This document shows, one piece after another, positions 3-64,000 of a stretch of DNA of 64,000 bases. The notes below the pieces were generated by a model. That model was not told the origin of the DNA and did not search any database. It saw nothing but the letters and a program-made list of their open reading frames with translations. Each line of letters begins with the position of its first letter. The first letter of the stretch is position 1. A program made the translations under genes and the position numbers. The DNA lies in NCBI GenBank assembly GCA_000091205.1, contig AP006494.2, one strand, 5' to 3'. The DNA is from Cyanidioschyzon merolae (taxonomy: Eukaryota).

Positions 3-1877
3 GAGGAGGTCGCTTCTTCAGATATCTATTGGGATGAGGTACTCTACCGCACTGCCGCTCTCGCGGAAGAGACCATTCATGGCCAGTCATGTAGATGTCG
101 AGCGTCACCGCAGCAACTGAACGCGCACTCGCCAAAAACGGCACATTTAGGCTCACCTGCTCATGCGAGCGTCCAGCATCGTGGAGGCGGCACCCAGTCG
201 GCAAGTCCCCAGACGTACGCCCAGCATTGCCCCGGTTACCCCGGTGAGGCGGTGACTCCAGGGGCGCCACCGTCCTTCCTGGACGACAACGGTAGCCTGA
301 ACTCGGTCGGAGCACCAGCTCGGATACCTACCAAGCGACAACGCGCTCACCTACGGCGAGCACAGGCGAGCGATACGGGAACACCGGTGCAGTCGCCGAG
401 CGGCGGCAGCCAGTGTGTCTGTACCCGTTCGAGTGCACGCTCGCACCGCGTTGCTGCGTTAGAGCACTCTCCGGCTATTTTGACGCCATTCTTGCACCAC
501 CGCGCCGCAAGAAGGCCACGGCTGGTCCGAATCAGCGACGCTGCCAGTCAGGTTGCACAGGGCACTGCTCTGAGCGACGCGCTGCCTAGCGGTAGCGCCA
601 GTCGCTGTCTTGAGGTTGCGGAGGCGTCGCCACGAATATCCGCGAGGCTCGGCTCGGTTGCGCAGCGTCCACGCGCGGCTGGTACCCGAAGCGCACCCAA
701 CAAAAGGATCCGACGCAAGCGTCGGCGTGAACTCGTAGCCGCTTTCATCGACGATCAAGCGGAGGTCTCCAGTTCCGAAGGCAATGCCTCCGTTGATCCA
801 GACGTTGCCGAAGCGCTTCGCGGCACCGACGGCGACTCCACTAGTCCTGATACCGATACGCCGGGCTCCCTGCGAGCATTCCTCACGAGCCAGGCGACGA
901 GCCAGTCCACCGGTGAACAACGTCGACAGCGGGCGATGTACTGGCGCTCGTTGCGCTCGCCACAGCTCCACTCACCATTATCAGCACAAGTGGAGCACAG
1001 TTTGACGACAACGACAACGGATCATCGTGCCTCTATCGTCCAGAGTGGAGCCTCTTCAGAAACCACATCACGACACGGTATGCTGGCCGGTCTGAATGAG
1101 CCCAGCGAAGGCACTGCAACGGAGCCGGTTGCATCGTCTCCAGACACACCGTGTTATCGCTGTGGGCGGAGTCAGGACCCGGAGCGTACGCTCCTGTGTG
1201 ACCGCTGCGACATCGAGTGCCATACGTATTGCTGTGATCCACCGTATGCATCTGTTCCCAGTGGATCCTGGTACTGTCCCCGGTGTGAGGCGTATCAGCG
1301 GAATGTACGCATCCTGGTACATTCGCGCAACCTGAACCATCCCCTACTGACCGCAGTTCGGGAGCAACTCGCGCGCTCGTATCCATTGTCGGGTCTGGTA
1401 CCGTGTGCGGGCCTCGAAGCAGACTATGTCGTGTCGCCGCGAGTTGCAGTGTTCTTTCTCGGACCCGAAAGTGGTCGCACACCGAATAGAGAACAGTGGT
1501 TCGAGCGACTCGAACGAGCAGCTTCCCGTTACACGCGCATCTTCGTGTGTTGGGTATGGACGAGTCCAATTCAGTTGAGTCCACGAGGTCTCCCGGCCGT
1601 GCTCAACACAAATGCAACGCTCCTTCGCTGCAGCGGAATCGCTCAGGCAGCGGAACGCATCACTGACCTTGCGCTTCTCGAGCACAGAAGCGGTTACGGA
1701 CTCGCCTGGGTTCCTTTGTCGTGGCCGGATCGCTTTCAAATGGCCTTAGGATTTCTTCAAAAAGCCGCCGATATGTCCTTCCTACATGCTATGCTGCTTC
1801 TGCTTCGCCACGGCAACGGGATGGACGCTCTACGGGACTGGTATCGCCACGAGGGCGCAGCAATGGCGACAACGTGA
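3..1877 (+). CDS. PHD-finger protein, 5' partial (frame is open from the window start; the listed GTG at 252 is not a real start)
   Basis: C4HC3 PHD signature CYRCGRSQDPERTLLCDRCDIECHTYCCDPPYASVPSGSWYCPRC near aa 300. There are no in-frame stops between position 3 and 252 and no ATG before aa ~228. The gene probably starts upstream of the window. Confidence 0.5.
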   Translation, partial: EEVASSDIYWDEVLYRTAALAEETIHGQSCRCRASPQQLNAHSPKTAHLGSPAHASVQHRGGGTQSASPQTYAQHCPGYPGEAVTPGAPPSFLDDNGSLNSVGAPARIPTKRQRAHLRRAQASDTGTPVQSPSGGSQCVCTRSSARSHRVAALEHSPAILTPFLHHRAARRPRLVRISDAASQVAQGTALSDALPSGSASRCLEVAEASPRISARLGSVAQRPRAAGTRSAPNKRIRRKRRRELVAAFIDDQAEVSSSEGNASVDPDVAEALRGTDGDSTSPDTDTPGSLRAFLTSQATSQSTGEQRRQRAMYWRSLRSPQLHSPLSAQVEHSLTTTTTDHRASIVQSGASSETTSRHGMLAGLNEPSEGTATEPVASSPDTPCYRCGRSQDPERTLLCDRCDIECHTYCCDPPYASVPSGSWYCPRCEAYQRNVRILVHSRNLNHPLLTAVREQLARSYPLSGLVPCAGLEADYVVSPRVAVFFLGPESGRTPNREQWFERLERAASRYTRIFVCWVWTSPIQLSPRGLPAVLNTNATLLRCSGIAQAAERITDLALLEHRSGYGLAWVPLSWPDRFQMALGFLQKAADMSFLHAMLLLLRHGNGMDALRDWYRHEGAAMATT

Positions 1878-2097
1878 GCCTTTAGCGCAGCCGCTGCGAA
1901 TGCTTGGCTGTCGAGTGCCAGCACCGTGGCGAAATCGTCGACACGAACCTGATCTAAAAGCGATAGGAAACGCCGTCTATCAACAGCATTCTTTCGAAAC
2001 AGCGCCTCGCTATAGACGACCGGTGATCACGACCTGGCAGGTAAGACCAAGCGCATGAGTGACCCCTGGGGACGCGTGAATGCACGTGTTCTTCAGT

Positions 2098-3231
2098 TTA
2101 GCGGGCGTTCGCGCGCAAATTCCGAATATGCAAAAGTGAATCTACAGGTGAACGACAGATGGGGCAACGATCGCTACGCACGCGCAACAACTGTGCACAG
2201 TCTACACAGAGACACAGGTGGCGACACGGCAGCACCGTGGTATCCCGCGGGTCCGTCATGCAAATGATACAGAGATCATCGTGTTCTGCTTCAGCGGCTG
2301 CAGCGTCGGAATCGTCTGCAGAGGCCATGCGCTCCTCGATGCCGTAGATCTCCTGCAACTCGTAAATGGTGCCGTCTACCAGGATTTTCTGTTGGACGAC
2401 CTTGACCGGGATCTCGTCAGCGAGCTCGAGTCCTTTCGGTGGCATGCACAGCGTCACGTATGTGGCCTGGAAACGCACGAGGCTGCCTCCATTGGGGTCT
2501 GTGTCCGTCGAGCGCCCCGCAGACTGTTGTACCTGCCTGTGGCCGCTCTTGGCGAGATCTTCGGCGCTCTCAAGGCGCTGCAGCAGAATCACAATCGGGT
2601 ATCGATGCTTGGCGAGTTTGGCCGGGTTCTGTTCGAAAAGAAACGACTCGCGATATCGACTGGGCACGAAACCGCGGTGGCTATTCTGGCGGTACCGCTG
2701 GCCCATACCGGCCTCGAATGGGGTAGGTACTGGGGGCACCGGCTCCAGCGGCTCGACATGGAACTGCTCAACGCGCGTTGTGCGGTTCGTGAGGTCCTTC
2801 GCCATGAAGAAGACTGTGCAGAGGCCCGAGCACGTTGCGTCAAAAACAAACTCCAACAAAAACTGCTGTGGATTTTCGGGATCTCTAACAAGGCGTACAC
2901 TCTTCTTCCGAACATTCAAGTCGTTCTTTATGGTGTACGCGTGAACCATGGTCGGAACCGGCTGTGTGGAACGCTCCGCACCACCCTGCAGCCAGCGGAG
3001 TCCGGAACTCGAGCCCTGATTCACATCGCCGCCAGGTCGTTGCCAGGAAACCGTGCCGGTCGGAGGCAACCCGTCAACGGCACCGGGCTGGGGCACGAGG
3101 TTGCCGGGGCTCGTTTCCACAGCTGGTACCGGACGAGGCCCCAGCACCCGTGCCTCCGGTGCATCGTTTCCCGGTCCGTCTCCGAATCGCTGTGCAACGT
3201 GTACATCAGCCTGCGAGTTCACGTTTCCCAT
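2098..3231 (-). CDS. MGRN1/LOG2-like RING E3 ubiquitin ligase (DAR2 domain plus C-terminal C3HC4 RING), with an N-terminal MGNVNSQ myristoylation-type motif
   Basis: ATG start confirmed at 3229-3231. C-terminal CIICMTDPRDTTVLPCRHLCLCVDCAQLLRVRSDRCPICRSPV matches the MGRN1 RING. Upstream LQEIYGIE and LEFVFDA blocks match MGRN1/LOG2. Confidence 0.85.
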   Translation of the reverse strand: MGNVNSQADVHVAQRFGDGPGNDAPEARVLGPRPVPAVETSPGNLVPQPGAVDGLPPTGTVSWQRPGGDVNQGSSSGLRWLQGGAERSTQPVPTMVHAYTIKNDLNVRKKSVRLVRDPENPQQFLLEFVFDATCSGLCTVFFMAKDLTNRTTRVEQFHVEPLEPVPPVPTPFEAGMGQRYRQNSHRGFVPSRYRESFLFEQNPAKLAKHRYPIVILLQRLESAEDLAKSGHRQVQQSAGRSTDTDPNGGSLVRFQATYVTLCMPPKGLELADEIPVKVVQQKILVDGTIYELQEIYGIEERMASADDSDAAAAEAEHDDLCIICMTDPRDTTVLPCRHLCLCVDCAQLLRVRSDRCPICRSPVDSLLHIRNLRANAR

Positions 3232-3306: not shown

Positions 3307-3518
3307 GCTAGGTCGCTAGGTCGCTAGGTTGCTAGGTCGCTAGGTCGCTAGGTCGCTAGGTCGCTAGGTCGCTAGGTCGCTAGGTCGCTAGATCGCTTGG
3401 TCGTTAGGTCGCTAGGTCGCTAGGTCGCTAGGTCGCTAGGTCGCTAGGTCGCTAGGTCGCTAGGTCGCTAGGTCGCTAGGTCGCTAGGTCGCTAGGTCGC
3501 TAGGTCGCTAGGTCGCTA
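3307..3518. repeat. Minisatellite (GCTAGGTC)n, about 26 units with a few point variants
   Basis: Direct reading: gctaggtcgctaggtc... with variants gctaggtt, gctagatc, gcttggtc, gttaggtc. Confidence 0.95.
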
Positions 3519-10800: not shown

Positions 10801-11811
10801 CGCGGACCCGCTTTGCGCCTGACTAGCTCTTGGCGTGCGAGCTCGTCGTCTCATCAACTGGTCAATTTTGGGTCCGAGCTCATCCTGGTTCACACAGTTG
10901 TCGAGAACTTCAAAGTAGATATGGGTACCGATTAACGCGGAGCACAACGATGAAGGCAGAGATTCCGTGCACAGCGATGCATTAACCAGCCAGCCAGCTT
11001 CATCCTCATCCCAGACGAGTCCCAGCCGAGTTGCGAGTGTTGCCGGCAAAAGCACGCCCACGCGCGGCGGGCGCTCCTCCGGCTGCGGCGATCGTTGCAG
11101 CAACTGCTCCAGCAACGTTCCTAAAAGTCGCAAACGCGCGATATCATCTAGCCCGCTGAGCACCACGGTGGGCACCGGTGTACTTCGCAGCGTTCTCCGC
11201 TGTGTATCACTCTCCGCGGCCTGTGTGGGCTGACTTGTCTGTTGTGGTGGCCGTTGAGCAGCGCCCATGGCAGCTGCCTCTGCGCTCGCGTCTGGCGGGT
11301 CCGAACCCCCGCCGTCTGTAACATCAGCGCTCCACTGGAATGCAGGCAAAACGACCGCGAAGATCGTGCTAGTATTCCTCTGTAGAGCAACGTGGTGCAG
11401 AGAGCGACGCAGTGAGCGCTGGTTGAAAGCTACTGGTGCCGCTGCGAAAGAAGAGCGTGTTAGTGGGCGATGCTGAATGGGCCGCACCTCCCAGGCACGC
11501 CCTCGAGCATGCCTTGGGGTAAGCGTCCTCGGAACGCGACTGCTCCACTGCAATACCGTTCTTTTCTGTACTATCCTTTCCTGTGGGAATAGATATCCCG
11601 CATAAATGACTTGCCCCTGTAAAACAGGGGCGAACATGGGCAACATCAATGTACTCTTAGGGTCCTCTTCGTTTGCTGCGAACCGGCGAGCGCTGGTGAA
11701 GCCAACCTTCATGCGCGCTCCGCGAAGCGCACTGCCGCGCACCGGTCGACGCGATCCGATGCTTTGTGTAACCGCAGGTGCTTCGAGGTGCTTTCTTACG
11801 AGGTGCTCCAT
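7894..11811 (-). CDS. Large CobW/ZNG1-family (G3E P-loop GTPase) protein with an apparent tandem architecture: a degenerate CobW-like unit, a CobW_C-like domain, an intact P-loop unit (GLPGAGKTSL...ADTVVFTKSDVV) and a C-terminal CobW_C-like domain. Contains a poly-Thr tract. The start codon is uncertain.
   Basis: Walker A ILAVCGLPGAGKTSLVGAL followed by TKSD (an NKxD-like motif). CobW_C-like segments SFLYRANRPFHPRRLFDKI...EIVFLGEDLDAMRIQIVLDECLL. The annotated ATG at 11809-11811 lies inside the 127-bp tandem repeat, so the true start is probably downstream. Confidence 0.6.
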   Translation of the reverse strand: MEHLVRKHLEAPAVTQSIGSRRPVRGSALRGARMKVGFTSARRFAANEEDPKSTLMLPMFAPVLQGQVIYAGYLFPQERIVQKRTVLQWSSRVPRTLTPRHARGRAWEVRPIQHRPLTRSSFAAAPVAFNQRSLRRSLHHVALQRNTSTIFAVVLPAFQWSADVTDGGGSDPPDASAEAAAMGAAQRPPQQTSQPTQAAESDTQRRTLRSTPVPTVVLSGLDDIARLRLLGTLLEQLLQRSPQPEERPPRVGVLLPATLATRLGLVWDEDEAGWLVNASLCTESLPSSLCSALIGTHIYFEVLDNCVNQDELGPKIDQLMRRRARTPRASQAQSGSAVQSAADQTVEAAPSPVNLFQVQAAYGVDYLIVCSPEKEEPYAIADSLAHVEWPLQLLALVSVIDAAAAAEVFAPTLRQQETASVAYSPENTAQTSPASERIPTTATGITGGTGLEISHNDADQALATSDTVETSRDGSSPSRGTLLHEKKTASRVEAGDVGAGDNDGASARRPPAMERERGSASNAQADNLVQLLVDQIEYANLVVVYNQQQMPGRETDADVRPMRKSQDASPDPEVRTAPTPSFQNLLRYLRLLNCEAQVILMHANTEWPQTLLERILERPFDPERMLWMPTWRRVLASFAATELTKTSQKYGSALPENRAQSTGKSSAKAGPSVGTSTAAATPATRATVPETSAASASQETTAATASWGAASAPDAGYDPGKAAAPKGPGAATGGSATHPAAPAVSSAAGTARPIWDSRFSNEQFLATLYSGTRPWERGFSTETVRPETSFLYRANRPFHPRRLFDKISDISTFHGVLRSVGKLWLANRMDSFLEWSQVGNNITLKRGQRFLVTLPLEQWPSAPNSQDRMRPLQWDERFGDRCSEIVFLGEDLDAMRIQIVLDECLLRDEELVFTEAWSEFEDPFESLVPNTDSTRAGGKTPPAAQPPSFVERLSSRVAPPWILITGEAKRSEANSEQNERILVPGDVEPLPANEGILAVCGLPGAGKTSLVGALNAHEDLLAWRLEPPGPSTLLQRQRLEAVSEAALASRLESHPRPFRLALETDEPLDGVDAVVCAVDCLRFRSQDHIQQQLVASADTVVFTKSDVVPAERLQQILEHVCGWNPHARVICAPYGRLQPAAIWVRRRNRPWLREAEATTTTTTTTTTAPTHDADSRVLPRLTAQAMQDAAPAGDAHRPAAANRGRLFRRLHLQRTMPIDVAAFMDLLRALEPFTETLYAVGIMRPANAPSPLLLTLDGVYMRIESHAPASIASSLTMDLVLYADGIQAEDLGSFFDRVHAGTLTS

Positions 11812-12390
11812 TTGCTAGAGCACATGTGATGCGGTGTATTTCCTTCATACGGTATGGAGGAAGCGGGTATTGAAAATGTTGTTGCGAAATGATTGCAACC
11901 GCAGGTGCTTCGAGGTGCTTTCTTACGAGGTGCTCCATTTGCTAGAGCACATGTGATGCGGTGTATTTCCTTCATACGGTACGGAGGAAGCGGGTACTGA
12001 AAATGTTGTTGCGAAATGATTGCAACCGCAGGTGCTTCGAGGTGCTTTCTTACGAGTTGCTCCATTTGCTAGAGCACATGTGATGCGGTGTATTTCCTTC
12101 ATACGGTACGGAGGAAGCGGGTACTGAAAATGTTGTTGCGAAATGATTGCAACCGCAGGTGCTTCGAGGTGCTTTCTTACGAGTTGCTCCATTTGCTAGA
12201 GCACATGTGATGCGGTGTATTTCCTTCATACGGTACGGAGGAAGCGGGTACTGAAAATGTTGTTGCGAAATGATTGCAACCGCAGGTGCTTCGAGGTGCT
12301 TTCTTACGAGTTGCTCCATTTGCTAGAGCACGTGTGATGCGGTGTATTTCCTTCATAGGATATGGAGGGAGCAGGTATTGAAAATACTGT
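11771..12390. repeat. Tandem array of a 127-bp unit, about 4.9 copies, the last one diverged
   Basis: Unit accgcaggtgcttcgaggtgctttcttacgag(g/t)tgctccatttgctagagcacatgtgatgcggtgtatttccttcatacggta(t/c)ggaggaagcgggta(t/c)tgaaaatgttgttgcgaaatgattgca recurs at 11771, 11898, 12025, 12152 and 12279. Each unit carries an ATG-led ORF, MEQLVRKHLEAPAV... Confidence 0.9.
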
Positions 12391-17744: not shown

Positions 17745-18380
17745 TCGCAAGGACACTTCAACGCTGACCATATTCTACGCCGTCGACTTTTGCAGCGCTT
17801 CACGATGACTGGTGTATCCTAGTGCACGAGCAAGACTCTGGCTTTGCTCTAGGTCGCCCAACGTAACAGAGCTGCAACTGTGTTTCAACGCTGACCATAT
17901 TCTACGCCGTCGAGTCTTGCAGCGCTTCACGTTGACTGGTTTATCCTAGTGTACGAACAAGACTCTGGCTTTGCTCTAGGTCGCCCAACGTAACAGAGCT
18001 GCAACTGTGTTTCAACGCTGACCATATTCTACGCCGTCGAGTCTTGCAGCGCTTCACGTTGACTGGTTTATCCTAGTGTACGAACAAGACTCTGGCTTTG
18101 CTCTAGGTCGCCCAACGTAACAGAGCTGCAACTGTGTTTCAACGCTGACCATATTCTACGCCGTCGAGTCTTGCAGCGCTTCACGTTGACTGGTTTATCC
18201 TAGTGTACGAACAAGACTCTGGCTTTGCTCTAGGTCGCCCAACGTAACAGAGCTGCAACTGTGTTTCAACGCTGACCATATTCTACGCCGTCGAGTCTTG
18301 CAGCGCTTCACGTTGACTGGTTTATCCTAGTGTACGAACAAGACTCTGGCTTTGCTCTAGGTCGCCCAACGTAACAGAGC
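17745..18380. repeat. Tandem array of a second, unrelated 127-bp unit, about 5 copies
   Basis: tcaacgctgaccatattctacgccgtcga... recurs at 17758, 17885, 18012, 18139 and 18266. There is no similarity to the 11771 array. Confidence 0.9.
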
Positions 18381-18791
18381 TGCAACTGTCCTCCTGCGCG
18401 CACGCCTCCAATGCCAGTACCAGTGCCGGGAAGAGCAAGTCCTTGAGTAAACGCGAAACGCTGTTCGTTCTCCTCGATAGACGGTGTTCATCCAGGCCTG
18501 GCTCTCGGAACAACCCGATTTCTCCTGCGGGCAAACAGAACGTGCCCTGGGGTGCGTTATTCTCAACGTATCCCGCACGAAATCGAACGCAAAAGCACCA
18601 GGGAAACGAAGCAGAAACGGTGTTTTCGTGGTGGCGGTCGCCTGGCGTTTCAAGAGACAGTGACATCGTTTCTGTCACTTGGGTGCCAGTTACAGACCAG
18701 GAAACGTATTCGTTTCCGTCACCGCCACTGTGGTACGCACCAGAGCTGTTCCTGGTGTGCGTTGAGTGCCACTTTCAGCTACAGTCTCACA

Positions 18792-22185: not shown

Positions 22186-22278
<93 letters not shown>
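22186..22278. repeat. (GCGT)n microsatellite, about 23 units
   Basis: tgcgtgcgtgcgtgcg... lying in the OAT/ULP1 intergenic region. Confidence 0.9.
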
Positions 22279-22280
<2 letters not shown>

Positions 22281-24649: not shown

Positions 24650-25285
24650 TCAGGCAACTGAGTCAGAAGCGGCATCAGTATCGTTCATTTGAAGCATATT
24701 CGGATGAAATCGTCGAAGGAAAGTGCGCAGCGCAGTGACGCCCTCAGCAGTTAGCAGCGGAAACCTAAATACCACCAAAAACACGACGCCGTCCTCGCGC
24801 TTCCCAACACCGAACCCTTCCCCTTGAATGGCAGTGCCACGCCGCCCATAGACAAGGGCAATGCGCGGCTCCTGCCGGTCGCTCGTCATCGGGTACCAAC
24901 AGTGAACGTCGTAGTGGCGAGCGCCGAGCCCTAGGCCGGCGCGCATAGCACTCTCTCTCGACCGGAATAGTGTCTGGTACGATTCACAAACCGTTTTTAT
25001 CCACTCGCTCTCAAAGTTGTGCTGTAGTAAAACGCTTCCATCCGCGGCTGTAAGCAGCAGTCGGTGCCACTCGTAGCGGCGCGCCAGAGACGCTGCCAGC
25101 GGGGTGCTCGCACCGGCTAGCGTGCCCGTTTCACTCGTAGCCGTTGAGAGCGAAGGCGAACGTTCCGACCACGCCCAACTTGGTCTTGAGCTGCTCACGT
25201 CCTCGAAATATTCATCCCAGGTTGATTCCGAAGATATACTGGGGTTTCGGTGACCAATCACCACGAACTCTGGACCCGTGGCCAT
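24650..25285 (-). CDS. Hypothetical protein (211 aa), no family recognised
   Basis: ATG-initiated ORF confirmed at 25283-25285. It lies between ULP1 and an AT-rich zone. There is no motif support. Confidence 0.3.
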   Translation of the reverse strand: MATGPEFVVIGHRNPSISSESTWDEYFEDVSSSRPSWAWSERSPSLSTATSETGTLAGASTPLAASLARRYEWHRLLLTAADGSVLLQHNFESEWIKTVCESYQTLFRSRESAMRAGLGLGARHYDVHCWYPMTSDRQEPRIALVYGRRGTAIQGEGFGVGKREDGVVFLVVFRFPLLTAEGVTALRTFLRRFHPNMLQMNDTDAASDSVA

Positions 25286-25380
25286 ACCAGGAATATACGG
25301 CTAGCAGGGGAATCGTGATGGAGCGTGTTTCGCGTGACCAGTGCGGATCTGGTTCCTGTTCAAAAGGCATGTTGGACAAA

Positions 25381-25500
25381 ATTGATCCTATATATCTATC
25401 TTCGTGCAAAATGGGCGATTTTAACTAGATATTTTATATATGTACATTTTCATGCTAAACGGGCGATTGCAACTAGATATTCCATATATGTTCGTGTTCG
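25381..25500. repeat. AT-rich island with two diverged direct repeats of about 50 bp
   Basis: tcgtgcaaaatgggcgattttaactagatattttatatatgtacattt / tcatgctaaacgggcgattgcaactagatattccatatatgttcgtgtt. Confidence 0.6.
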
Positions 25501-25865
25501 CGCAGCACTGCTGTTCCGGTGACGCAACCGCGCAATCCATGCATCTGCGGTATCGTGCAGGAGCCTCCTGCAACTCCACCGCGTCGCCATGCGTTCCTGT
25601 GCACACGGGTGCCGTACAAGACGGATATCGCAAAGAGCGATCTTCGCGTGGACGTCATGAAAACGGCGATTGATCTGTGCGCTTAAATCTGTGTCCAGAT
25701 GAACTGGAAATCGTCTCCATAACGAACATAGGTATCCACACCACAGCCTCTGGGTATGTTCCCGGTATGATCAACACTCGACTTGGCCGGCGTTTTATGC
25801 TACTACTTCCTTTTTCTCTCACTTGTTTTGGGGACCATGCAAGTTTGTCTCTCCTTTTCCTTCGG

Positions 25866-26123
25866 CTATGCTTTCGGCATGCGAAGCGTGTTCATGGCAG
25901 CGTCCAAGTCACGATTTCGTCGCTTGCGGCTAGTTTCAGCACGATGCATGCCCGGTCGCAAGTTATGAACTACGCATCGAATGCAATATACATCTCGTTT
26001 GTATACAGAGCCAATGCGAACTGCGCAGCGGTGACACTTGTTCGTGTTCAGGTGTTCGCATACGCCCAACGCATTGCATCCCCTTTCGAGCGCTACCCCA
26101 CGGCACGTGACTGCTTGCTTCAA
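25866..26123 (-). pseudogene. C-terminal fragment of a TnpB/Fanzor-type RuvC nuclease: zinc ribbon CxxC-x15-CxxC followed by the RuvC-III motif
   Basis: Translated by hand from the minus strand: ...NTNKCHRCAVRIGSVYKRDVYCIRCVVHNLRPGMHRAETSRKRRNRDLDAAMNTLRMPKA*. The C-x2-C...C-x2-C then RDxDAAxN order is the TnpB/Cas12 C-terminal arrangement. The upstream part is absent or decayed. Confidence 0.55.
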
Positions 26124-27115
26124 TGCCTAATACACGCCCTCGATTGGTACACGGGACTCGCCTCGATGCCCTCATCCGTTGGCGCCTTCGCTGCCGCTCA
26201 CGACCATCAGATCCTTCTTCCCCGCGATTTTCTCGCTGAGTTCTCGATCTGGTGCACACGCTTGCGCATGCTGTCTCATTCGATGGAGGATTTGGAGAAC
26301 ACTTTGTCGTCCGTGATGAAACAAGTACCAGAAAGGAATTCGAGTCAAGTTATCTCGATCTGTCTACGCTTACCTCGTACAAAGCTGTGACGCACACTCC
26401 ACAGCGAGCAATCGTTTTTATGACCAATGTCCGAATCCAAGACCCTTTTCCATGCTAACAGAAACAACGCGAGCCTTTGAATGCATCGCACTTGAAGGAT
26501 ATCATGCCGCCGCCGAATGCCATCTAATCGATACCCGCAAGTACATGGCGATATACATTTCGTTTGGAATCGATTTTTCGACATTTTCAGTGAACACTCC
26601 AAATGAGATTGAGAAAAAGACGTCTAGCGACGTCTTCTCGTATTACCCGTCCATACAGTGAAACGAAATGCTCTGCCAAGGTGCTTTTCCAATCGAATCC
26701 TCGACGAATGCGCGACTTGCGCTTGCTACAATTAAAGAAAAGAGAGACATGAAGGCTTGAGCTTATGAATAGGGCCATGATATCGGTTGTTTTACGAACT
26801 CTTGTTCTAGAGCATCGATAACCACCTTGATGCCAATGCTGGAACCAAGTCCGGCTGCAAATGGAATAAAGAGCCACTCCGGAAACATGACATGGGATCC
26901 TTTACCCATCTACGAATCCGTATGCCCCTAGTGCAACATTTCAAACGTCCATGCTGTATATCTGAAAACCTCTCGGGGAATAACTCTCAGGACAGGAAAA
27001 CGGCATGCACTTCAGTATCCCATTTGCATCCGGCAAGAACGTAGCGGCAACAGGGAGTTTAGAAGAAGCTCAAGGCGGCGACCGACGCTGCCGGCGCCTT
27101 TATCGCTCGGGTATC

Positions 27116-28819
27116 CTAGACGCGAACGGCTCGCCCGGGTCGTTCGCCAATAAGAAACAATGCCTTTACCGGTGGGGGAAAGGCTCCGCGCTCCGCCGTC
27201 CAACTCGTTCCATTTGGGTCCGACGCCAGCTCGCCACCAAGCTCGACAGCAGCAGCGTTGCGACAGAGTGCGTCCAAAATCACAACGTTTGCCTGCTCGT
27301 CTCGCAGCTGCAAACGAAGCGTACCACGCGCACCGTCTCTTACCACAAACTGCATGCCGTGACGGGTCGGACCCAGTACATACGCCCCTGGTTCAGCGGT
27401 CTCAGCGGAGACCTTTACGCTATAGCGCGTGCCGTGCGCTTCCATCTGCCAGTTGCCCCACTGGACACTCCAGGATATGCGGCGGCAGTTCCAAGCAGCG
27501 AACTCCCACAAATATCCCTTCCAGTGGAACGCGATGATACCAATGGTTTCCCGAGCTACAACCTTATTCGGTCGCTGGGGCCAGCAGAGCTCTCGACGCG
27601 CTCCCACACAGGTCAAAGTCAACGGTGCATCGATGTCTGCGGACGACAGCTCCAGCGATGATGCGTCCTCTCGGAGCACGTCAAAGACGTGACACTGCAG
27701 CCAGAACCATCGCGATGGGAACGCACTGCCCCAGTTCTTCTCGATATACGTGGGTGCACGCTCGAAGCGAAAAACGCGACCATGCCAGTCCCGAAATATA
27801 CCAGTGGATCGAGCGAAAGCAGAGAGTATCTGCCAGCCTGGTTCAAAGACTTGAAAACGCGTGAGCCAGGTTCCAGTCGAGCGCGCACCATCCGAACCCC
27901 ACGATAAGAGCGGCTCGATTCGCATATCGAAAGCGCAACTTATGTCTGGGCTCAGGTGCGCTACCATGGAACGCTCTCGATCCACATCGTCTGCTTGGAT
28001 CGAGCCCTGATGCCACTGAGCAGAGAGCTGATATCCCGTATGCACGTGTTCTCGGAAAAGACTAGGGGCCAGGGAGCGCGCGTGCTCTGCTCGTTCGTCG
28101 CTGAGGAGGTCACTCGTTCGACCCCACTGACCAATGCGTAACGTCGACGTTGGCAGGTGCCGCAGCGCCGGAAAAAAGCCATCCATCATTTCTCGCGAAA
28201 CAAGCAGCTCGTCCTGCACTCCAGAGCTCAAAACCTGTATTCGACCCCTGCGACCGTCTTCCAAGCTGTACATGAACGCCAGCGAAGTCGCCTCTGTGGG
28301 CAGCACGATTCGGACGTACCAGCCCTCGAAGAATCCACGATCTACGCTCGGCATATGAACACCGGCGTGGGGAAGTTCCAGGGGATCTGCGGTCTCCTTG
28401 GTCGCCTCATGATGACAACAACGTTCGTCTCTGCGTCGCCTCGCACCTGAGACCCGCTTCAGGGTACGCAGACTGCCACGAGAACCCCCAGATAGCACAT
28501 GCTGTCGAACGGGGCTCGCATCCAGCGACGAAGCGCTCCGCCGGCGTCCCGTGAGAACTGCACGCGGCCCCGTTCCTGGGTGATCGTTGTACCAGCTTGA
28601 AACGAGCAGCGACCGAGCCCGGTGCCTATGCTTTCTCCATGGTGGCTCTGGGAGTGCCCTGCAACGACCAGCGTGCTCCTGGTACGCGTACACAACAACA
28701 GAGGACAGCGGAGACGACGGCGACACCCACGCTGCCGCTGCGTTTACGGCAACCTTGCCGCTTCGGAGCTCCCGTTGGACCTCGAACCCCGAACCTCTAC
28801 ACTGGAGCTTTTCTCGCAT
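27116..28819 (-). CDS. VTE1: Tocopherol cyclase (VTE1/SXD1 family) with an N-terminal extension of about 150 aa that could be a targeting sequence
   Basis: FFEGWYVRIVLP, FEPGWQILSAFARSTGIFRDWHGRVFRFERAPTYIEKNWGSAFPSRWFWLQCHVF are colinear with plant and cyanobacterial tocopherol cyclase blocks, recalled from memory. ATG confirmed at 28817-28819. Confidence 0.65.
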   Translation of the reverse strand: MREKLQCRGSGFEVQRELRSGKVAVNAAAAWVSPSSPLSSVVVYAYQEHAGRCRALPEPPWRKHRHRARSLLVSSWYNDHPGTGPRAVLTGRRRSASSLDASPVRQHVLSGGSRGSLRTLKRVSGARRRRDERCCHHEATKETADPLELPHAGVHMPSVDRGFFEGWYVRIVLPTEATSLAFMYSLEDGRRGRIQVLSSGVQDELLVSREMMDGFFPALRHLPTSTLRIGQWGRTSDLLSDERAEHARSLAPSLFREHVHTGYQLSAQWHQGSIQADDVDRERSMVAHLSPDISCAFDMRIEPLLSWGSDGARSTGTWLTRFQVFEPGWQILSAFARSTGIFRDWHGRVFRFERAPTYIEKNWGSAFPSRWFWLQCHVFDVLREDASSLELSSADIDAPLTLTCVGARRELCWPQRPNKVVARETIGIIAFHWKGYLWEFAAWNCRRISWSVQWGNWQMEAHGTRYSVKVSAETAEPGAYVLGPTRHGMQFVVRDGARGTLRLQLRDEQANVVILDALCRNAAAVELGGELASDPNGTSWTAERGAFPPPVKALFLIGERPGRAVRV

Positions 28820-29443: not shown

Positions 29444-31060
29444 ATGACCTTTAGCAAGTACACGTCGCTACTTACTTGTTTGAGCCCGTTGCTGGTGGGA
29501 GCGCTGGTGTCGCTACGGCCCTGTGTCGGTTCACTGCTGCACCTGTTGTTGTCGTGGCTATGGATGCCTGGACAAGTTCGGGGACGTTCTCGGGCTATTC
29601 GACGCCTTCATAGTTTCGCCACGAGTCTCAGCTTAGGATATGCCTTGGTGTGGATTCTGGTATATTTGGGGCTGCGGTTCAGTGGACTTACTCGAATGGA
29701 CAACGTGTGGACACTCGATCGGAGCCAGACTCATGCGACGCGCGTAACAGCGTCTGCACTGGGCATTCCGCCTTGGTCACCCGCTTCGGATGTGTTTCTT
29801 CATCTATTGTGTGGAATCCTTGCCTGGTTTGCGTACCGCTATGGTGAAGACGAGGCCGTCTCTGCAACACTAGAGCGCGGGAGGCTGCTCTGGAGTCAGG
29901 TGGCCAAGGTTTCCTGGCTTGTACTCGTCGCTTCGCTGCCGCCAAGCATCCCATCGGCGCTGCTCTACACGCTGCTGGTGCTTGCCACACTACTTTCAGA
30001 CTCTGGACAGCGTCGCCCGATAGCCAGTCGTGGAGGCGCAACGAAAGAGACCTCGGGACGCGTGCCGCGTGGTGTCGCTAGGCGTCGCCTGCAGGCTGTG
30101 GTGCTCACAACAGCCCTTGTTCTTTGTGCGCTCCATACGGTGGCGAGTTTCGTGTTTCAGTGGGCGTGGATTCGGAGCACACCGGCGTCCGAGTCAGTAT
30201 GCGGCCAGCTTTTTGGTCTGCAGGTCCTACAACGTGAGCGCTTCGTAACCGCTCGCGGTGCGGCGCTGGTGCTGCTCGCTTCGTGGCGCCTGCTCAGTCT
30301 GAGGGAACCCATGCTGGTGACCTGGAAAGCATCAGGAATGGGTACTCCTCGCGCTGCTGCAGTGCTTTCATTCATGGTTACAATGATGCTGTGCTCGCAT
30401 TGGCCAGGAATTTTCGCCTTGGTGTTAGCAGGTCTGGCTGAACTCGCGGTGCTGCTGACCGGGGTCTCGGTTTGGCAGACAGTGATGCGCATTCTTGCTG
30501 CGGTTGCCACGATCCTTATCGGACTTGTCGCTTTCATTTTGGGAATCATTGCGACGGTGGCAAAGCGTACTGTGCCGACGTTCTGGGGGTTGCCTCTCGT
30601 GGGCCGGTCCCTCTTGTGGAATGCCTGGCTCGTGTTGTGTCCGCTCCTGTGGACACAGCAGCGGCTGCCCACGGAGCAGAAATCGAATCCACTGGGACGC
30701 CTGCTACCCAGCGAGTACGTGCCCCAGTACGTTGCTTGGTTGCTTCTGGTTGGCGCACTTGCAGCCTTGGTGCAAGACTGGCTGCTCGGTGTGCTGGTGG
30801 CAGTACTCGCCATCGGCGTACGAACTGGAAAGGTAAGGCACCTGGAGGCATGGGTGTGGCTGCCGCTGCACGGCTGGGCTGCTCTGATTTGGAGCCTGCG
30901 TTGCGGACTTTGCGGTTTCCAGTCCGGTATCCTCGCCGAGTCGTGTATCCGGTCACCCCAGCAGTGTTATGTATGGGTTGCGCTTGCGGCAACAACTGCC
31001 GCTGGATGGGTGTTCCGCGTGCAGCCGCAGGTCTCGGCGGATCCCGAAAGAAACGATTAA
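29444..31060 (+). CDS. Hypothetical polytopic membrane protein (about 10-12 predicted TM helices), family unknown
   Basis: A 538-aa ATG-initiated ORF with repeated hydrophobic segments of 20-25 aa. The antisense ORFs in the same region are judged spurious because of the GC-rich codon bias. Confidence 0.45.
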   Translation: MTFSKYTSLLTCLSPLLVGALVSLRPCVGSLLHLLLSWLWMPGQVRGRSRAIRRLHSFATSLSLGYALVWILVYLGLRFSGLTRMDNVWTLDRSQTHATRVTASALGIPPWSPASDVFLHLLCGILAWFAYRYGEDEAVSATLERGRLLWSQVAKVSWLVLVASLPPSIPSALLYTLLVLATLLSDSGQRRPIASRGGATKETSGRVPRGVARRRLQAVVLTTALVLCALHTVASFVFQWAWIRSTPASESVCGQLFGLQVLQRERFVTARGAALVLLASWRLLSLREPMLVTWKASGMGTPRAAAVLSFMVTMMLCSHWPGIFALVLAGLAELAVLLTGVSVWQTVMRILAAVATILIGLVAFILGIIATVAKRTVPTFWGLPLVGRSLLWNAWLVLCPLLWTQQRLPTEQKSNPLGRLLPSEYVPQYVAWLLLVGALAALVQDWLLGVLVAVLAIGVRTGKVRHLEAWVWLPLHGWAALIWSLRCGLCGFQSGILAESCIRSPQQCYVWVALAATTAAGWVFRVQPQVSADPERND

Positions 31061-39977: not shown

Positions 39978-40280
39978 AAACGAACGCTTGTTTGCGTCGC
40001 GGAAGCCGTGTAACTCACCCCGGTTTGTTTTTCGTGAGCATCAGGTGGCGGCCTGGTGCCTAGCAAGCAGCGTTGGTACCACGAACGCTTGTTTGCGTCG
40101 CGGAAGCCGTGTAACTCACCCCGGTTTGTTTTTCGTGAGCATCAGGTGGCGGCCTGGTGCCTAGCAAGCAGCGTTGGTACCACGAACGCTTGTTTGCGTC
40201 ACGGAAGCCGTGTAACTCACCCCGGTTTGTTTTTCGTGAGCATCAGGTGGCGGCCTGGTGCCTAGCAAGCAGCGTTGGTA
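39978..40280. repeat. Tandem array, 101-bp unit x3, upstream of TOP2; two further diverged direct repeats of about 100 bp lie at 39470-39690
   Basis: cgaacgcttgtttgcgtcgcggaagccgtgtaactcaccccggtttgtttttcgtgagcatcaggtggcggcctggtgcctagcaagcagcgttggtacca recurs at 39981, 40082 and 40183. Confidence 0.85.
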
Positions 40281-42668
40281 CCGACGATGCATATCGTAGC
40301 GCGTTTTACACGTGCTGTGCTCTGATAGCACTCGCGAAAACATGCTGTCGACGAGAACTCGGCAAACCAAGGCCTCCCGGTGGATACCGCGTGCGTCACA
40401 GAAACATGTCGCAAAAGAATATGTGCTACAGAGGCATCGTCGGAGCAAGCTAACATCCATTCGTGGACACGACGTTGTGATGTCCTCAAAGACAATGGAT
40501 ACTTCGATCAGGGAGTACCTGGAGGCGCTACGATGCGGTATATACCTCGCTGCATGCGTCACTGGGGGGCGCCTTGGAACGTCACAGCACTGCTGGCGAC
40601 TGGTGCAAACACGACCGCCTCCTGTGTGCGTGTTTGTTTGTGGTGGCTTCCATATCATCTAGCTTCGTTTCGTGCTTGAGCCGGAGAGCCCAGACGAAAG
40701 CGTTTGCTCCTGGATGTGGCCCCAGACTAAGAGGCAGACGCGAATCTCGGCAGACGCTGGCCCCTGCATCTCCATTTGGAGCGCCTGCTGGTACCAGCGT
40801 AGGAGCAAGTCCTTGCACCATGTTGCGGGCACAATTGCTCAACGTCGGTATCGGAGCATGCCGCACAGCTACCTCGTGCCGATACCTTTCAGGTCAATAA
40901 AGCGAAGCCTTCCACCTCGGTGGGGCAGCTGAGGAAGCCAGTCGGAGGTCGTCGCAAGCGGCGATGACGACGACAACTGTGCCGCCAGTCACTTGGCATC
41001 CACCTTGCTACTGAATTCAGCATCTATTCCCTCCAGGACGTTGACTCTGGGACTCCCTGAAATATAGCAGTATCGATGGGAGAACGATGGCCTGTTCGCT
41101 GCATACACGCAGCAATGACGAACGCGGAAGTATCGGATTAATGAGAAGGATCTCCAGTCATGGAGGAATAGACACGGCGGGAATCGTACGACGCTCGGAA
41201 GCAGGCTTATGAGCCGCTGTGGGTCCAGAGCGTCGCTACCCTCTTGAGAACGTAAAATGGAGCACTGAATCGTTTGCTATGTACCTGAATGTCGAATGCT
41301 TTCCGAGCTCGTTTTATATATACGGCCTCGACACTTGATACGCAGGAGGAAGAAGCGCTTACGCATTCAAACACAGATATAGGATCTTCTTCCGTGTTTT
41401 CGTGGTGACTCCATTGACTCGTGGACGCTGGGATTCCTTAAGTTACTGGAATCAAGATCATGCATGACGCAATAGAGCAACGACACATAGAGTAAACGAT
41501 GTCATTATCCAATTTATACTTTGAATCCTTTAGGCTTCAATCTTTCGTCACGAACAGCATGTTCAAATCACGCATAATGCAACTGCTCTATTTTTTGGTT
41601 CAAGATAAGTTGTGAGCGCGGCAATCCGCTTCGGTGGACTGATGAGAAAAAAGCACGACGTTGTCGCTTTCCTAGATGTTTACAAGCTCGCTCCAATAGC
41701 TCACTGAAATCTTTACGCCCAACGATAACCCATGGCGTTCCAAAGACCAATCCTCCGCTTTTTGTTGCCATCGAAGAAACAGCATTCGGTAGCGGCATGG
41801 TGCCGCTTACGGCATATGCCTCCAGAGGCTCCCATCGCTTCTATAGGCATTGAAAAACTGTCTTGGTTATGGGCTCACCCTTTTACTCACCAAAGTGGTT
41901 GCTTGCATTTGAGTCGACGTCGCCGCTTTGCACGGAGCATTCGTAGACGGATCTGGACTTTTCGATTTGTACCGCAGACTGGATTATCCTCTTGATACTT
42001 GCTACATCAAGGACAGCCTCTTTTCCACACACACTTTACTAAATAAAAAGCCTTTCCTTGCGCGTGCAGCAGACAGCGTCTTCGCCTAGTTCATCGTTCA
42101 GAAGAAAAACCCCGGATCGTGGGGTACTGCACCAAGCGTGGAAACGGAGAAGGGTATCCAACGGAGCCGTCTGTCCGGCCAAGGGCATATACAGCGAAGT
42201 GAAATAAGCATTCAGGCGCTTTAGGGCGTCTCTCGGAGAACGGCTGGTGATGGATCTATATGGTTACCCCTTACCAGCGTCAAGTTTCACCGCTTCACAG
42301 CGCACACGCGGGCTGTTTATAAAGAAGATGAAAAGCGAAGTGAAATGCGTCGATCACTGTAGTCGCCTGTGCACAAAACACTTGAACAACAACAGCAGGC
42401 AGCGAGATCGGCTCTTGAACGCTGTTATCAGCATCCTTCGTCTGCTAACACAAGAATAGACCAGAAAACAGAGATCGACCTATGGATAGCCAGAGATATG
42501 AGAGAAGCAACCCCCAGCAATCTCGTAAAAGCACGCAAAGACTCACTTCGGTAAAATCAGCAAAAGACACAAGCCTTGTCCTCTGAACATCAGCGTTCAT
42601 TTGCTGCACCAGGTGCAGCCGCTACCCAAGTAGCTCATGAACATTACCATCATCATGATCATCACCAT

Positions 42669-43046
<378 letters not shown>

Positions 43047-48264: not shown

Positions 48265-49179
48265 CGGACCAGCGTTCAAAGTTTCGGGTGCACTTTGGAT
48301 CGAAGATGTCACGGTCGCCTTTGTTGATTGCGCCGGAGGCACAGAGTTGAAGCCGCTCCAGCAACGCCAAGACGAGTCCGCAGCACATGCAGCCCGCGGT
48401 GAGCACCTGGTACGATAGTACGACAAGGCAGTAAAACCACAGAGCCAGCAAGAGGCTGGACGCGAGGAGCACTACCAGAGCGTCTCGACACGTGCAGAGG
48501 TCCCAGTGTCGACTGGGCTGTAGTAGTGAACGGCTGAGGCCTTGGCACAAGTGTCGCCAACGCGCCCATAGGAAAGCAAAGCGTTTCCGCAGCGTTGCGC
48601 TGCGACGCTCGGGGGCTTCCGCTGCTTCCTCATCACGCTGCATGCCGTCCGCAAGGTCAACTGTTTCCAACTGTTTCCACACTACAAACGTTGTCCTGGT
48701 TGAACAGTCCGCACCTGATACTGCCCGTGCACCGTCTGCGGCGAGTGCGACGGGAGCGCACGCGCTGAGCCTTCCAGAGGCGACTCGTGCGTCTTTATAC
48801 TAGTAAAGTCTTGAAGTCCACAAGAGGAGAACGGCCGCAGTGGCTGTTTCTGCGGCCTTGCTTTCCTGTCCGGTTCGTCGTGGCGAACGCACCAAACGTC
48901 CGCAGAGCGGATAGCAGAGTGCTGGCAAATGAGCGACGTAGTGGCTAACCTGCGAAGATGTGTCGTTTTGGCTAGCGCCTGGTTGCCACGCGGGATATCC
49001 ATCCATGACAGAATCGGGTGCAACAGGTCCACATGACGAAGACGAGCGTATAAGCTCAGGTTTGGACCTTTTCCTATTGTCGTGGACACTGGCATTTGCG
49101 GGTTTTTTACGGCTGCTTCCTTTACCTCCCTCTTATCACCTGCTATCCGTACTCTGGTCTATCCTGTCTACTCCATACT

Positions 49180-49806
49180 GTAGTCAGCAGTTGAAGGATG
49201 TAGATGGCAGCATTGAAGTCTCGATTTCACTGTTTCCTGTTATTGTCGATGGTTTCCTCGTAAAAACGGTCGTTGAAAAATATACATCGAATGCAACTTT
49301 CATCTTCTTGATAGACAGACTCAGTGCACACTGCGCAGCGGTGACACCTGACTGTTTTGCGGTGTTCATGGCTGTCCAGGACGCCAAATCCTCCGAGTGC
49401 CGCGTTGAAGTCTCTGACTGTTTGCTTCATCGATGGGTGCATATGCCGTGAGGGAACCATAAGCCCAGCCTCAAGGCTCTCCTCCGTTTTCGCCCCAGGA
49501 GCGGTACTCAGCGATCACGAGCTTGCTCTGGGTGATGCCGTCTGCGAGTACGCGGTACACTGCAAGCGCAAGCGCATGCTGTTCCATTCGAACGAGGGTT
49601 TGTCGAGCAAGAAGTTTTCTATGATGCATGAAGTATCGGAAGGAAGACCCGGACTGGAGAACAGGTCGGGAAATTTCGATCCGTCTACGCGTCCTTGTGC
49701 AAAGCGGTGACGCACACTGCAGCGGAGATAATCGCAGCGATGACTCCGGTCCGAGTCCGAGACGCTTTACCACAGAAACAGAAGAGACGGAATTCTTTTG
49801 GAGCAT
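49180..49806 (-). pseudogene. C-terminal half of a TnpB/Fanzor-type RuvC nuclease, inactivated by an in-frame TGA and a frameshift. Contains a RuvC-II-like block, a zinc ribbon and the RuvC-III motif.
   Basis: Minus-strand translation: ...ITQSKLVIAEYRSW (RuvC-II-like, Glu retained), a frameshift, then ...FNAALGGFGVLDSHEHRKTVRCHRCAVCTESVYQEDESCIRCIFFNDRFYEETIDNNRKQ*NRDFNAAIYILQLL. The C-x2-C-x15-C-x2-C ribbon and the NRDFNAAI motif are separated by a TGA. It shares DNA-level homology with the 25.9-kb fragment, for example catcgaatgcaa...actgcgcagcggtgacac. Confidence 0.5.
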
Positions 49807-50831
49807 ATCCCGTGGGAGACATCATAGGGCTGTCGAATACGGGTCAGTTGGTACTCATATAGAGGGAATGATTTGACTTTCGGACGGAGTCGATTATTTG
49901 ACAAGTTCAGTGAACTTTTGGCATGAGCTCGTGATGAAATCGTGTAAGTCGGATTCTGCGTGGTCAGCGCTGTTCCGCGAATTGCTCCGCTCACGACTTG
50001 TTTCGAAACAGCGAGCTCGATATGCTAAAGAATGCGCGATTTCAAGATCTATACGTGAGGTGTGGGGATGCACACAGGCTCGCACCTGAAAATGGATCAA
50101 GATATCGGTTACGCTGCGGACACATGAGCGAAGGCATCGCAAATGATCGTGATTTCGATGACGTAACAAATTCAAGCGGCAAAGTGTCGAACCTGCGACT
50201 CCGAAAAGACGTGCCAGCGCCTGGAAACTACGTACGAGCCCGTCATCGTCTCGTGCTGGACCTCGGGTGCCGGCGCTGGGTATCCACTGAACATTCTGGA
50301 AAATGTCTAGACAGGAACAGAGCGAGTGGTACAGGGTTCCCTTGTCATGTTTGACGGGTGTGGCGCGATACGAATAATGATGCCTATTGTGCGTTCTAGA
50401 TTTTCCAATAGATTCTTTTTTGCCCTTGCAGGGATCGCAAACCCACCTGGCCCCAGGCGATCACTCGACGAGGTATGCTTGCCAGCGCCCAAGTTCCGAA
50501 CAGGCACTCCGGACTCCAAGAGAAATCCAAAACGACTCGTCAAAATAGCAAGAAACGCTGGTGAGTTACGTGGGCCTCGGCATATCCTTTGCGCAGCAGC
50601 CCAGGTGTAGACATCTGCGTACCAGAAGAACCATGCGGTTGAGGGATCCAGTGCTCTCCATCCGCCGAGGTCGCTTTCCGCTGTTCCATTCCGATGAATT
50701 GCATCATACGAGAGTGCACAAACTGCATTCGAGATGCGAGGCCTCGATTCAGCATTAGACGCAGTGATGCAGACTCGACAGAAACTCTCTGCTTCGTGAC
50801 CCAGCCCGTTTAAAATTTGAGGCATCCCCTG

Positions 50832-55000: not shown

Positions 55001-55170
55001 CTAAACAGCACGCTATTCATCAGGATCACGTTTCGCTTCAACAAAGGCACCGAGCGCGCCGTGACCCATGCCTGGCAGACCTCCCCGGTTCGCTCACCGA
55101 GCACGACGCGCTTTTGAGGCCTGGAGTGTGCTGGTGGCTACTGCCTGGCACTCCCGCTTTTGCACATTGG

Positions 55171-63100: not shown

Positions 63101-64000
63101 GAAGAAGTCATTATGGCGTTTCCCTTCACCGCCAAGATGCACGTCGAGTTACGTGACAGCTAGCTTCTGCAATGCGTTACCGGTGCGCACGATACAAAAG
63201 AAAACAAAATAACAAAAAAATATCGGATAGCAAGTTTTTCCCCATCTACTGTGAACGTTAAAATGAGGAAGCTTTTGCGTATGGTCCGACATTTATATTT
63301 TAGGAGCGAGGCATGCAAGTAGCGAGAATCCTACGGCTTAATCTCCGTAGGACGCTGCAGTTGCGGATGATGTGACGCACATGAGCACCTCGTCGGAAAC
63401 GCATTTGATTCTGTGACTATGACAGCGTATTCCGCGTCTGGGCGTCACCTGGGCCGTGGTGGGCTCCTAGTATACCGCTCCCCGCTACCGCAGGCGGAAG
63501 GTCAGCCGTTCAGAATTTGACGATCCCAGAAATATAATAGCTCCGATTCCGTATCGCATAAACAAAGCGCCTTCCGACACGCTCAAATGTAGACAACACC
63601 AGGCCTAACTCACAGTGCATCCGCAACAGAGGTAGAGACACAACCGCGGGTGCACACGGCAGGAAGCGGAATACAGCAGGGATTAGAGAACAACGTGAAC
63701 AGCGGAAAATAAGCAAAAGCGATGAAACGAACCGAACTTGTCAAGCATGATGGACGCTTTCTTGAAAGACAATACAGATCAGGGAATCAAGAATACATTG
63801 TCAGCGACAAGTCCAGCCGAACAAAAAAAAGCAAGAAGGGATATGCCTAACGGCTCTGGTATGCTGCATGTCACTATGACAGGTGGGTATGGGCCCAGAT
63901 CGTTCCGCCGCAAAGGATTCCCTAATGACAATGAAAAGCGCGACGTCGCTATAAAAGATGCAAATCCACTGAGATCATCCCACGCAAAGGAGATGGGGGG

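Follow-up and report, generated by a model that had tools for sequence, protein, structure and literature searches.

A decayed copy of an old Fanzor1-derived repeat family between two Cyanidioschyzon merolae genes, beside an AT-rich repeat that is probably unrelated to it

Fanzor1 proteins are TnpB-like nucleases that combine a RuvC domain with a zinc finger and are guided by an RNA from the 3′ end of their own element; the guide RNAs of Fanzor and TnpB alike are encoded at the element's 3′ end. Fanzor1 is known to be associated with giant viruses. Cyanidioschyzon merolae is usually described as nearly transposon-free and is credited with a single Fanzor1 family. The one family listed for the species, CMe-1A, is present in ~150 copies that are ~80% identical to a consensus of 3169 bp, encodes a 734-aa protein, and shows neither terminal inverted repeats nor determinable target-site duplications (Bao & Jurka, 2013; PMC3627910). 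The same study defines the Fanzor1/TnpB superfamily by the motif D-X(125,275)-[TS]-[TS]-X-X-[C4 zinc finger]-X(5,50)-RD, and in the literature searched it alone was found to treat Fanzor in C. merolae (PMC3627910).

Six Fanzor1 relics lie in the 64-kb window analysed here, that is, the whole stretch of 64,000 nucleotides. Two are CMe-1A copies, located by sensitive blastn of the consensus from the PMC3627910 supplement; the other four, A to D, form a family of their own.
52511–55105, minus strand: CMe-1A copy, 82% identical to the consensus, 5′-truncated at consensus position 648, with a 296-aa open fragment at 53039–53929
60692–63803, minus strand: CMe-1A copy, 71% identical to the consensus and nearly full length (consensus 21–3161)
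~25705–27040, minus strand: relic A, one entire ~1.35-kb unit from an old repeat family derived from Fanzor1, intergenic, 48.7% GC
49020–50355, minus strand: sister copy B, the best preserved, with ~290 codons in one frame and three stops
41245–42615, plus strand: sister copy C, the most decayed, delimited by window blastn and shared boundaries
57372–58730, plus strand: sister copy D, delimited in the same way
The original prediction had counted four relics, all on the minus strand; there are six, copies C and D are on the plus strand, and the two CMe-1A copies are presumably the prediction's other two minus-strand relics. GC content is 47–51% in every one of the six, against 55% for the window. 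The dips in the GC composition profile mark the relic positions quite well. Sensitive blastn of the CMe-1A consensus against copies A–D found no DNA match, and the similarity between the CMe-1 protein and the A–D consensus is limited to NRDFNAAINI (E 0.036). Since A–D are without DNA similarity to CMe-1A, they look like an older, separate and apparently undescribed Fanzor1 family. The best explanation of the locus, to which we give a probability of about 0.9, is that relic A, once a copy of a Fanzor1-bearing mobile element in the C. merolae nuclear genome, is now dead and decays neutrally, and that the AT-rich repeat beside it is unrelated intergenic DNA.

The recognisable Fanzor portion of relic A amounts to ~725 nt and is interrupted by two stops in frame and one or more frameshifts. 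The features on which its identification rests are as follows.
25806–26530, minus strand: recognisably Fanzor1 part of relic A, from the family HMM, hhalign and frameshift-tolerant alignment
25866–26123, minus strand: 85-codon ORF that begins with TTG and lacks an ATG, the longest open stretch left in the relic A pseudogene
25974–26036, minus strand: C4 zinc finger CHRC-x13-CIRC (equivalent of TNB / OrfB_Zn_ribbon), read from the sequence
25890–25916, minus strand: RuvC-III motif NRDLDAAMN (family consensus RDRDxNAAxNI; four-copy consensus NRDLNAAINI)
26127–26129, minus strand: in-frame TAG stop (GVY*ALKQ), two codons upstream of the ORF's TTG
26172–26174, minus strand: in-frame TGA stop (ANG*GHRG), inside a stretch that reads GGGHRGEASVPVK in the four-copy consensus and in an intact relative, P0002
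26345–26602, minus strand: second surviving ORF fragment of the same pseudogene, 85 aa, in another frame, separated from the C-terminal part by a frameshift at ~26345
Between them, the 725 nt span the helical region after RuvC-I, the RuvC-II/linker region, the zinc finger and RuvC-III. The ORF at 25866–26123 on the minus strand translates as MKQAVTCRGVALERGCNALGVCEHLNTNKCHRCAVRIGSVYKRDVYCIRCVVHNLRPGMHRAETSRKRRNRDLDAAMNTLRMPKA, as the original prediction wrote it, and holds E23 (26055–26057), the counterpart of a family-invariant Glu, together with the C4 finger and RuvC-III. The finger cysteines are C30/C33 (26025–26036) and C47/C50 (25974–25985), with 13 residues between the CxxC pairs; the predicted finger, with x13 and not the x15 first given, and the NRDLDAAMN after it are both present. 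In the family alignment all four cysteines fall in Cys columns that are invariant or nearly so, and NRDLDAAMN aligns with the invariant D335 and N341 columns. Before the first Cys, relic A reads N-T-N-K-C, the four-copy consensus N-T-V-K-C and P0002 T-T-Q-K-C. At the [TS]-[TS]-x-x positions relic A fits at the second only, and the family-invariant Glu three residues ahead is present.

An ORF this short, with a TTG start and no significant Pfam match, might have arisen by chance, or belong as an exon to an ordinary zinc-finger gene of the host. Pfam searches of the raw ORF and of stitched translations gave nothing significant, PF07282 (Cas12f1-like TNB) reaching E 5.5 with the ORF and 0.15 with the consensus; against a PF07282 gathering threshold of 26.3 bits, the ORF (7.7 bits), the consensus (12.7) and P0002 (15.5) all fall below. 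Against chance or a host exon stand a match of the Fanzor1-family HMM, run over six frames of the window, to relic A at 25803–26291 on the minus strand (E 2.7e-15, 51 bits), a far higher score for the four-copy consensus (131 bits), three sister copies with mostly copy-specific stops, and a locus-tag series with no number free at the relic. C. merolae genes are, moreover, almost entirely without introns. The intron-containing host zinc-finger gene that the original prediction had named as its own alternative is contradicted by the family HMM, the sister copies and the consensus score, and we regard this whole reading as effectively refuted.

The assignment to Fanzor1 came from intact relatives. 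A search of the four-copy consensus protein against 5.8 billion proteins returned two. P0001 (E 3.3e-27), a decayed ORF, is on a contig assembled from a sequencing run (Logan) and is 66% identical in DNA to copy B over 326 nt; P0002 (E 1.8e-22), from a JGI metagenome, is an open ORF of 387 aa. Common to P0002 and the consensus are GGGHRGEASVPVK.MY, an E..T..KC lead-in to the finger, RNRD.NA.INIL and an RPAY tail. An exhaustive HMMER search with P0002 gathered 349 relatives at E<=1e-3, many of them 680–880 aa long, and an 833-aa member sits inside P0002's own 90% cluster. Across an alignment of 37 relatives (P0002 numbering), D78, E253, C260, C319 and D335 are invariant, and C263 and C322 near-invariant. 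The profile built from these 37 matches the PDB structures 9cf0 (4.9e-18), 8gkh (2.8e-15) and 9cer (8e-9) and, more weakly, the mimivirus TnpB-like protein L79 (1.6e-4) and Cas12f (0.42). It was the profile that was needed here, as phmmer of the consensus and of P0002 against PDB sequences gave noise only. PF07282 is matched by 31 of the 37 intact relatives at E<=0.01, the best at 1.7e-8. Because the family profile matches the window copies, the consensus scores 131 bits and the profile matches Fanzor1 structures, the assignment of A–D to Fanzor1 is secure. The TnpB/Fanzor-type relic of the original prediction is accordingly a decayed gene, and specifically a Fanzor1 one.

Relic A has company in the window. 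Sensitive blastn of 25000–27400 against it found three further copies of 1.1–1.35 kb at 56–59% identity. The strongest A–B segment pairs 25975–26057 with 49285–49367 (76%, E 8e-11), and a longer match joins 25774–26885 to 49086–50207 at 59%, which bears out the nucleotide homology with a relic at 49.2 kb that had been noticed earlier. Six-frame matches of the family HMM mark the sisters as well: B at 49149–49460 on the minus strand (E 1.5e-12), D at 58209–58637 on the plus strand (E 4.8e-7) and C at 42346–42474 on the plus strand (E 0.09). Aligned four ways, the copies show a background pairwise identity of ~0.25 until column ~145, ~0.5–0.6 from there to ~1540, and then a fall. Both boundaries are common to all four copies, and the flanks are without homology. 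Shared boundaries within unrelated flanks point to the dispersal of a discrete ~1.35-kb unit rather than to segmental duplications. The family is also dispersed beyond the window, since a decayed copy on a Logan contig (L002; SRR29605857_41679, 181–976), with DNA 66% identical to copy B over 326 nt, sits in a different genomic context, beside a TENA/THI-4-like gene; that contig possibly comes from a related alga. Longer homologues of the 85-codon ORF thus exist, both as sister copies of up to ~1.35 kb and as intact relatives. The C-terminal module of relic A, once called isolated, is not so, because family DNA homology continues ~900 nt further upstream, to ~27040.

The manner in which the four copies differ is informative about their history. 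Stops and frameshifts occur in every frame of every copy, and yet a majority consensus of the four reopens ~285 codons with a single stop. By profile score the consensus reaches 131 bits (E 3e-42), against 51, 42, 24 and 6 bits for the single copies. Since the consensus both restores the coding frame and outscores each copy, the disabling mutations must be mostly private to each. Within the C-terminal region, inter-copy identity at the three codon positions is 0.54, 0.55 and 0.555, without periodicity, which argues for neutral decay after insertion and not for the divergence of working genes. Compared with the family majority by leave-one-out, A–D are 63–68% identical to it. One lesion is shared: the codon after '..MY' is a stop both in copy A (26127–26129, TAG) and in copy D (~58300, TGA), where the intact relative P0002 has Lys. 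This stop may have been inherited rather than acquired in two independent hits, in which case the source element could already have been defective.

How much of a gene the unit once contained was approached from the C-terminal side. Extending upstream from the HMM match, hhalign of the upstream peptides pushes homology to the equivalent of P0002 residues 118–235 (probability 96.6%, E 5.6e-10), and a frameshift-tolerant alignment of relic A (A-oriented 621–1345, ~26530–25806) covers residues 449–681 of the 682-aa relative P0008. Overall, the Fanzor homology of relic A corresponds to P0002 residues ~118–369. To the 5′ ~500 nt of the unit (26530–27040) no homology could be assigned. The RuvC-I Asp was not recovered: the HMM and hhalign matches end at the ~118 equivalent, downstream of the GIDPGR of P0002 (76–81), and two RuvC-I candidates in the consensus, 'WTDE..' and 'ELIPKV', from relaxed tblastn and frameshift-tolerant alignment, have conflicting and non-significant placements. 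A 'GID*' motif in another frame was also considered and dropped, since that position is occupied by a different stop codon in each of three copies. A frame +1 match, 'W..MRL..QR.A', was rejected; it overlaps the far stronger frame-0 match 'LYRMEQHALARAADR'. Two other features of the unit are taken as chance. One is an antisense ORF over relic A (25677–26390, plus strand, 237 codons, GTG start), which stop codons interrupt in the corresponding frame of copy B; the other is an 18-nt inverted repeat near A's 5′ end (26851–26868 / 27016–27033), whose arms do not seem complementary in copy B. The ~1.35-kb unit could represent either a complete compact Fanzor gene or a 5′-deleted, non-autonomous derivative of a 2–2.5-kb gene. 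An uninterrupted ORF with a start codon is absent from relic A, given the two stops, the ~26345 frameshift and a TTG as the only start of the last fragment. With no ATG, in-frame stops just upstream and a RuvC-I Asp that could not be recovered, we infer that relic A makes no functional nuclease, and it shows no indication of present function.

Seven ORFs of the window match annotated proteins of C. merolae strain 10D exactly, and the setting of relic A in the window, which we take to be C. merolae 10D chromosome 12, is intergenic.
24650–25285, minus strand: CML325C, a hypothetical protein named profilin by UniRef (exact protein match; ATG at 25285)
25388–25489, no strand: AT-rich tandem repeat of 48 bp × 2.2 at 77–78% identity, adjacent to relic A and not part of it
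27116–28819, minus strand: tocopherol-cyclase-like ORF, the upstream neighbour of relic A, between CML325C and CML327C
29444–31060, plus strand: CML327C (exact protein match)
Relic A lies within the unannotated 1.8-kb spacer that separates CML325C from the tocopherol-cyclase-like gene, both on the same strand. The locus tags CML325C and CML327C leave one number between them, for the ORF at 27116–28819, and none for relic A. An exact-sequence look-up of the neighbouring 567-aa ORF returned no record. A metagenome contig (L003; JGI 3300053675, Ga0556031_002196; 1–102) encodes a CML325C protein identical to the window's. No other contig has an identical CML325C; this one gives out 102 nt upstream of the gene, right at the border of the 48-bp repeat, where the assembly was probably interrupted by the repeat. 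Ending there, it is uninformative on relic A and on the AT-rich island.

Relic A occupies all of the 1.8 kb between its two neighbours, which are read from the same strand, so that the transcript of the upstream gene must end inside it and the CML325C promoter must lie at the relic's 3′ side. This arrangement, together with TATA-like motifs in the island 100–215 nt from the ATG, would suit an exapted remnant: the host would have kept relic A, alone or with the AT-rich repeat, for use as a promoter, a terminator or a non-coding RNA. The divergence of the copies nonetheless looks neutral. The 3′ region shared by A–D (the last ~80 nt of the ORF and ~160 nt of flank) folds with RNAalifold at −1.6 kcal/mol into 9 pairs, none backed by a compensatory change, at an identity of ~55% that would hide a lost structure, and Rfam at gathering thresholds returned no matches anywhere in the window. 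The island, moreover, is outside the element, and the other three copies sit in unrelated contexts. Retention of the relic for a host function is on this evidence quite improbable, and neutral decay remains the favoured account.

The island itself matches the original prediction in its description: ~370 bp 3′ of the stop, two ~50-bp direct repeats were foreseen, and 48-bp units are found 377 nt beyond the stop codon, at 31–34% GC against 55% for the window. It was further suggested to be a degenerate element end or a guide-RNA region. In favour of this, Fanzor/TnpB guide RNAs are located 3′, the island is 3′ of the stop, and copy C also has an array with a period of about 50 bp (52 bp × 4.3, 42651–42876) just past its 3′ boundary. 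Yet the four-copy homology stops at ~25705, some 215 nt short of the island, with GC-rich DNA between (~200–215 nt at 60–64% GC). When the element ends are compared across A–D, the repeats are not terminal, and the 48-bp motif is not found beside B, C or D. A 20-nt degenerate repeat core, allowing <=3 mismatches, has two matches in the whole window, both in the island (0.01 expected by chance); no comparable array stands beside copies B and D; and the copy C unit seems, by reading, dissimilar. Folding of the island is no better than that of shuffled sequences (z +1.1). Six loci in the 64-kb window carry long-period tandem arrays, so a chance co-occurrence of array and relic is plausible. Lying outside the shared boundary, unique in the window and without a folding signal, the repeat is very improbable as part of the Fanzor element, even more so than the exaptation of the relic.

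Some details of the other arrays may be recorded here. The copy C array lies 36 nt beyond that copy's 3′ boundary and merges with long tracts of (CAT)n and (CAG)n (42651–43046 in all); its 52-bp unit was compared with the 48-bp repeat of A by reading only and is not apparently similar. Other intergenic tandem arrays are at 11770–12385, 17757–18389, 39980–40287, 3307–3518 and 22186–22280, and comprise two unrelated 127-bp × 5 arrays (no mutual blastn match), a 101-bp × 3 array, an 8-bp × 26 array and (TGCG)24.

With the island set apart from the element, its position becomes suggestive in another way. It lies 100–215 nt upstream of the CML325C ATG and has a TATATA-type motif in each unit. Closeness to the ATG, the TATATA-type motifs and the commonness of long-period arrays in intergenic DNA make it more likely a promoter-region minisatellite of CML325C.

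Taken together, these observations fit a simple history. An active ancestor would have encoded a TnpB-like RNA-guided nuclease, judging from the family to which its remains belong. A ~1.35-kb form would then have spread, in a manner suggested by the shared boundaries, and reached four or more sites within these 64 kb, after which each copy gathered its own stops, frameshifts and substitutions. Copy A is by now reduced to a string of open fragments, the last of which (25866–26123) still spells the zinc finger and RuvC-III. The AT-rich 48-bp repeat, from its position and TATA-like motifs, would most likely belong to the promoter region of CML325C. C. merolae is thereby shown to carry the remains of at least one older Fanzor1 lineage, unrelated to CMe-1A. 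For the locus itself, the result tidies the annotation of one intergenic region and implies no new mechanism. More broadly, the reconstructed consensus and its intact metagenomic relatives offer a handle on Fanzor1 history in the Cyanidiophyceae and their viruses.

That viruses enter the picture follows from where the relatives are found. The closest open relatives of the A–D consensus, at 34–45% identity over 150–265 residues, are on short metagenome contigs. One of them (P0223; L004–L006) adjoins an Rpb2 of 1341 aa, whose score against Pol II Rpb2 structures, just 578 bits, is far under that expected of a cellular Rpb2 orthologue. Another (P0003; L007) occurs together with PTP-SAK, RNA ligase, 2H-SAK and Peptidase_S74 genes, and a fragment with 57% identity comes from GVMAG-S-3300000576-28 (L010), a giant-virus MAG contig in IMG/VR with a GC content of 27%. 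From their gene content alone, the contigs carrying the relatives would appear to be viral in context. Such relatives fit the association between Fanzor1 and giant viruses, and the direction of any transfer is not indicated by them. A bolder formulation would have A–D as fossils of a second, older, uncatalogued Cyanidioschyzon Fanzor1 lineage whose nearest living relatives are apparently in environmental giant viruses. We consider this formulation as a whole rather unlikely, if considerably more credible than any of the rival readings of the locus discussed above. Were it true, giant viruses and an extremophilic red alga would long ago have exchanged an element encoding an RNA-guided nuclease, and the relics would be the record of that exchange. 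The 5′ and 3′ boundaries common to the copies would likewise delimit a compact element, and with the help of these ends its guide RNA could be recovered from copies that have decayed less.

Compared with the described systems, A–D resemble CMe-1A in host and in superfamily, in that the copies are old and mostly decayed, and in showing no evidence of terminal inverted repeats. They differ from it in several respects. The unit is under half the length of CMe-1A; the first CxxC pair, present in relic A, is absent from CMe-1; and A–D are more diverged, at 63–68% to their own majority against 71–82% to the consensus for the window's CMe-1A copies. With the Fanzor1 proteins of Parasitella parasitica (9cf0), Spizellomyces punctatus (8gkh) and Guillardia theta (9cer), A–D share the order of C-terminal elements: a Gly-rich 'IGYG..G..GE.SVP' linker, E-x-x-T-x-K-C, the C4 finger, RDxNAAxNI and an 'RPxY' tail. 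Relic A, unlike these, is a pseudogene with stops and frameshifts from which the RuvC-I Asp, the N-terminal domains and the guide RNA are not recoverable, and its unit measures 1.35 kb where the nearest full-length relatives have 680–830 aa (~2–2.5 kb of coding sequence). The arrangement of a zinc ribbon plus RuvC-III is also that of prokaryotic TnpB (IS200/IS605, IS607) and of Cas12f, whereas the nearest relatives of relic A are eukaryote- or virus-type Fanzor1 proteins and not bacterial TnpB. The Fanzor1 genes on giant-virus (GVMAG) and virus-like metagenome contigs, finally, include the closest intact relatives of the A–D consensus; unlike those genes, the A–D relics sit singly between ordinary algal genes and not in an integrated viral block.
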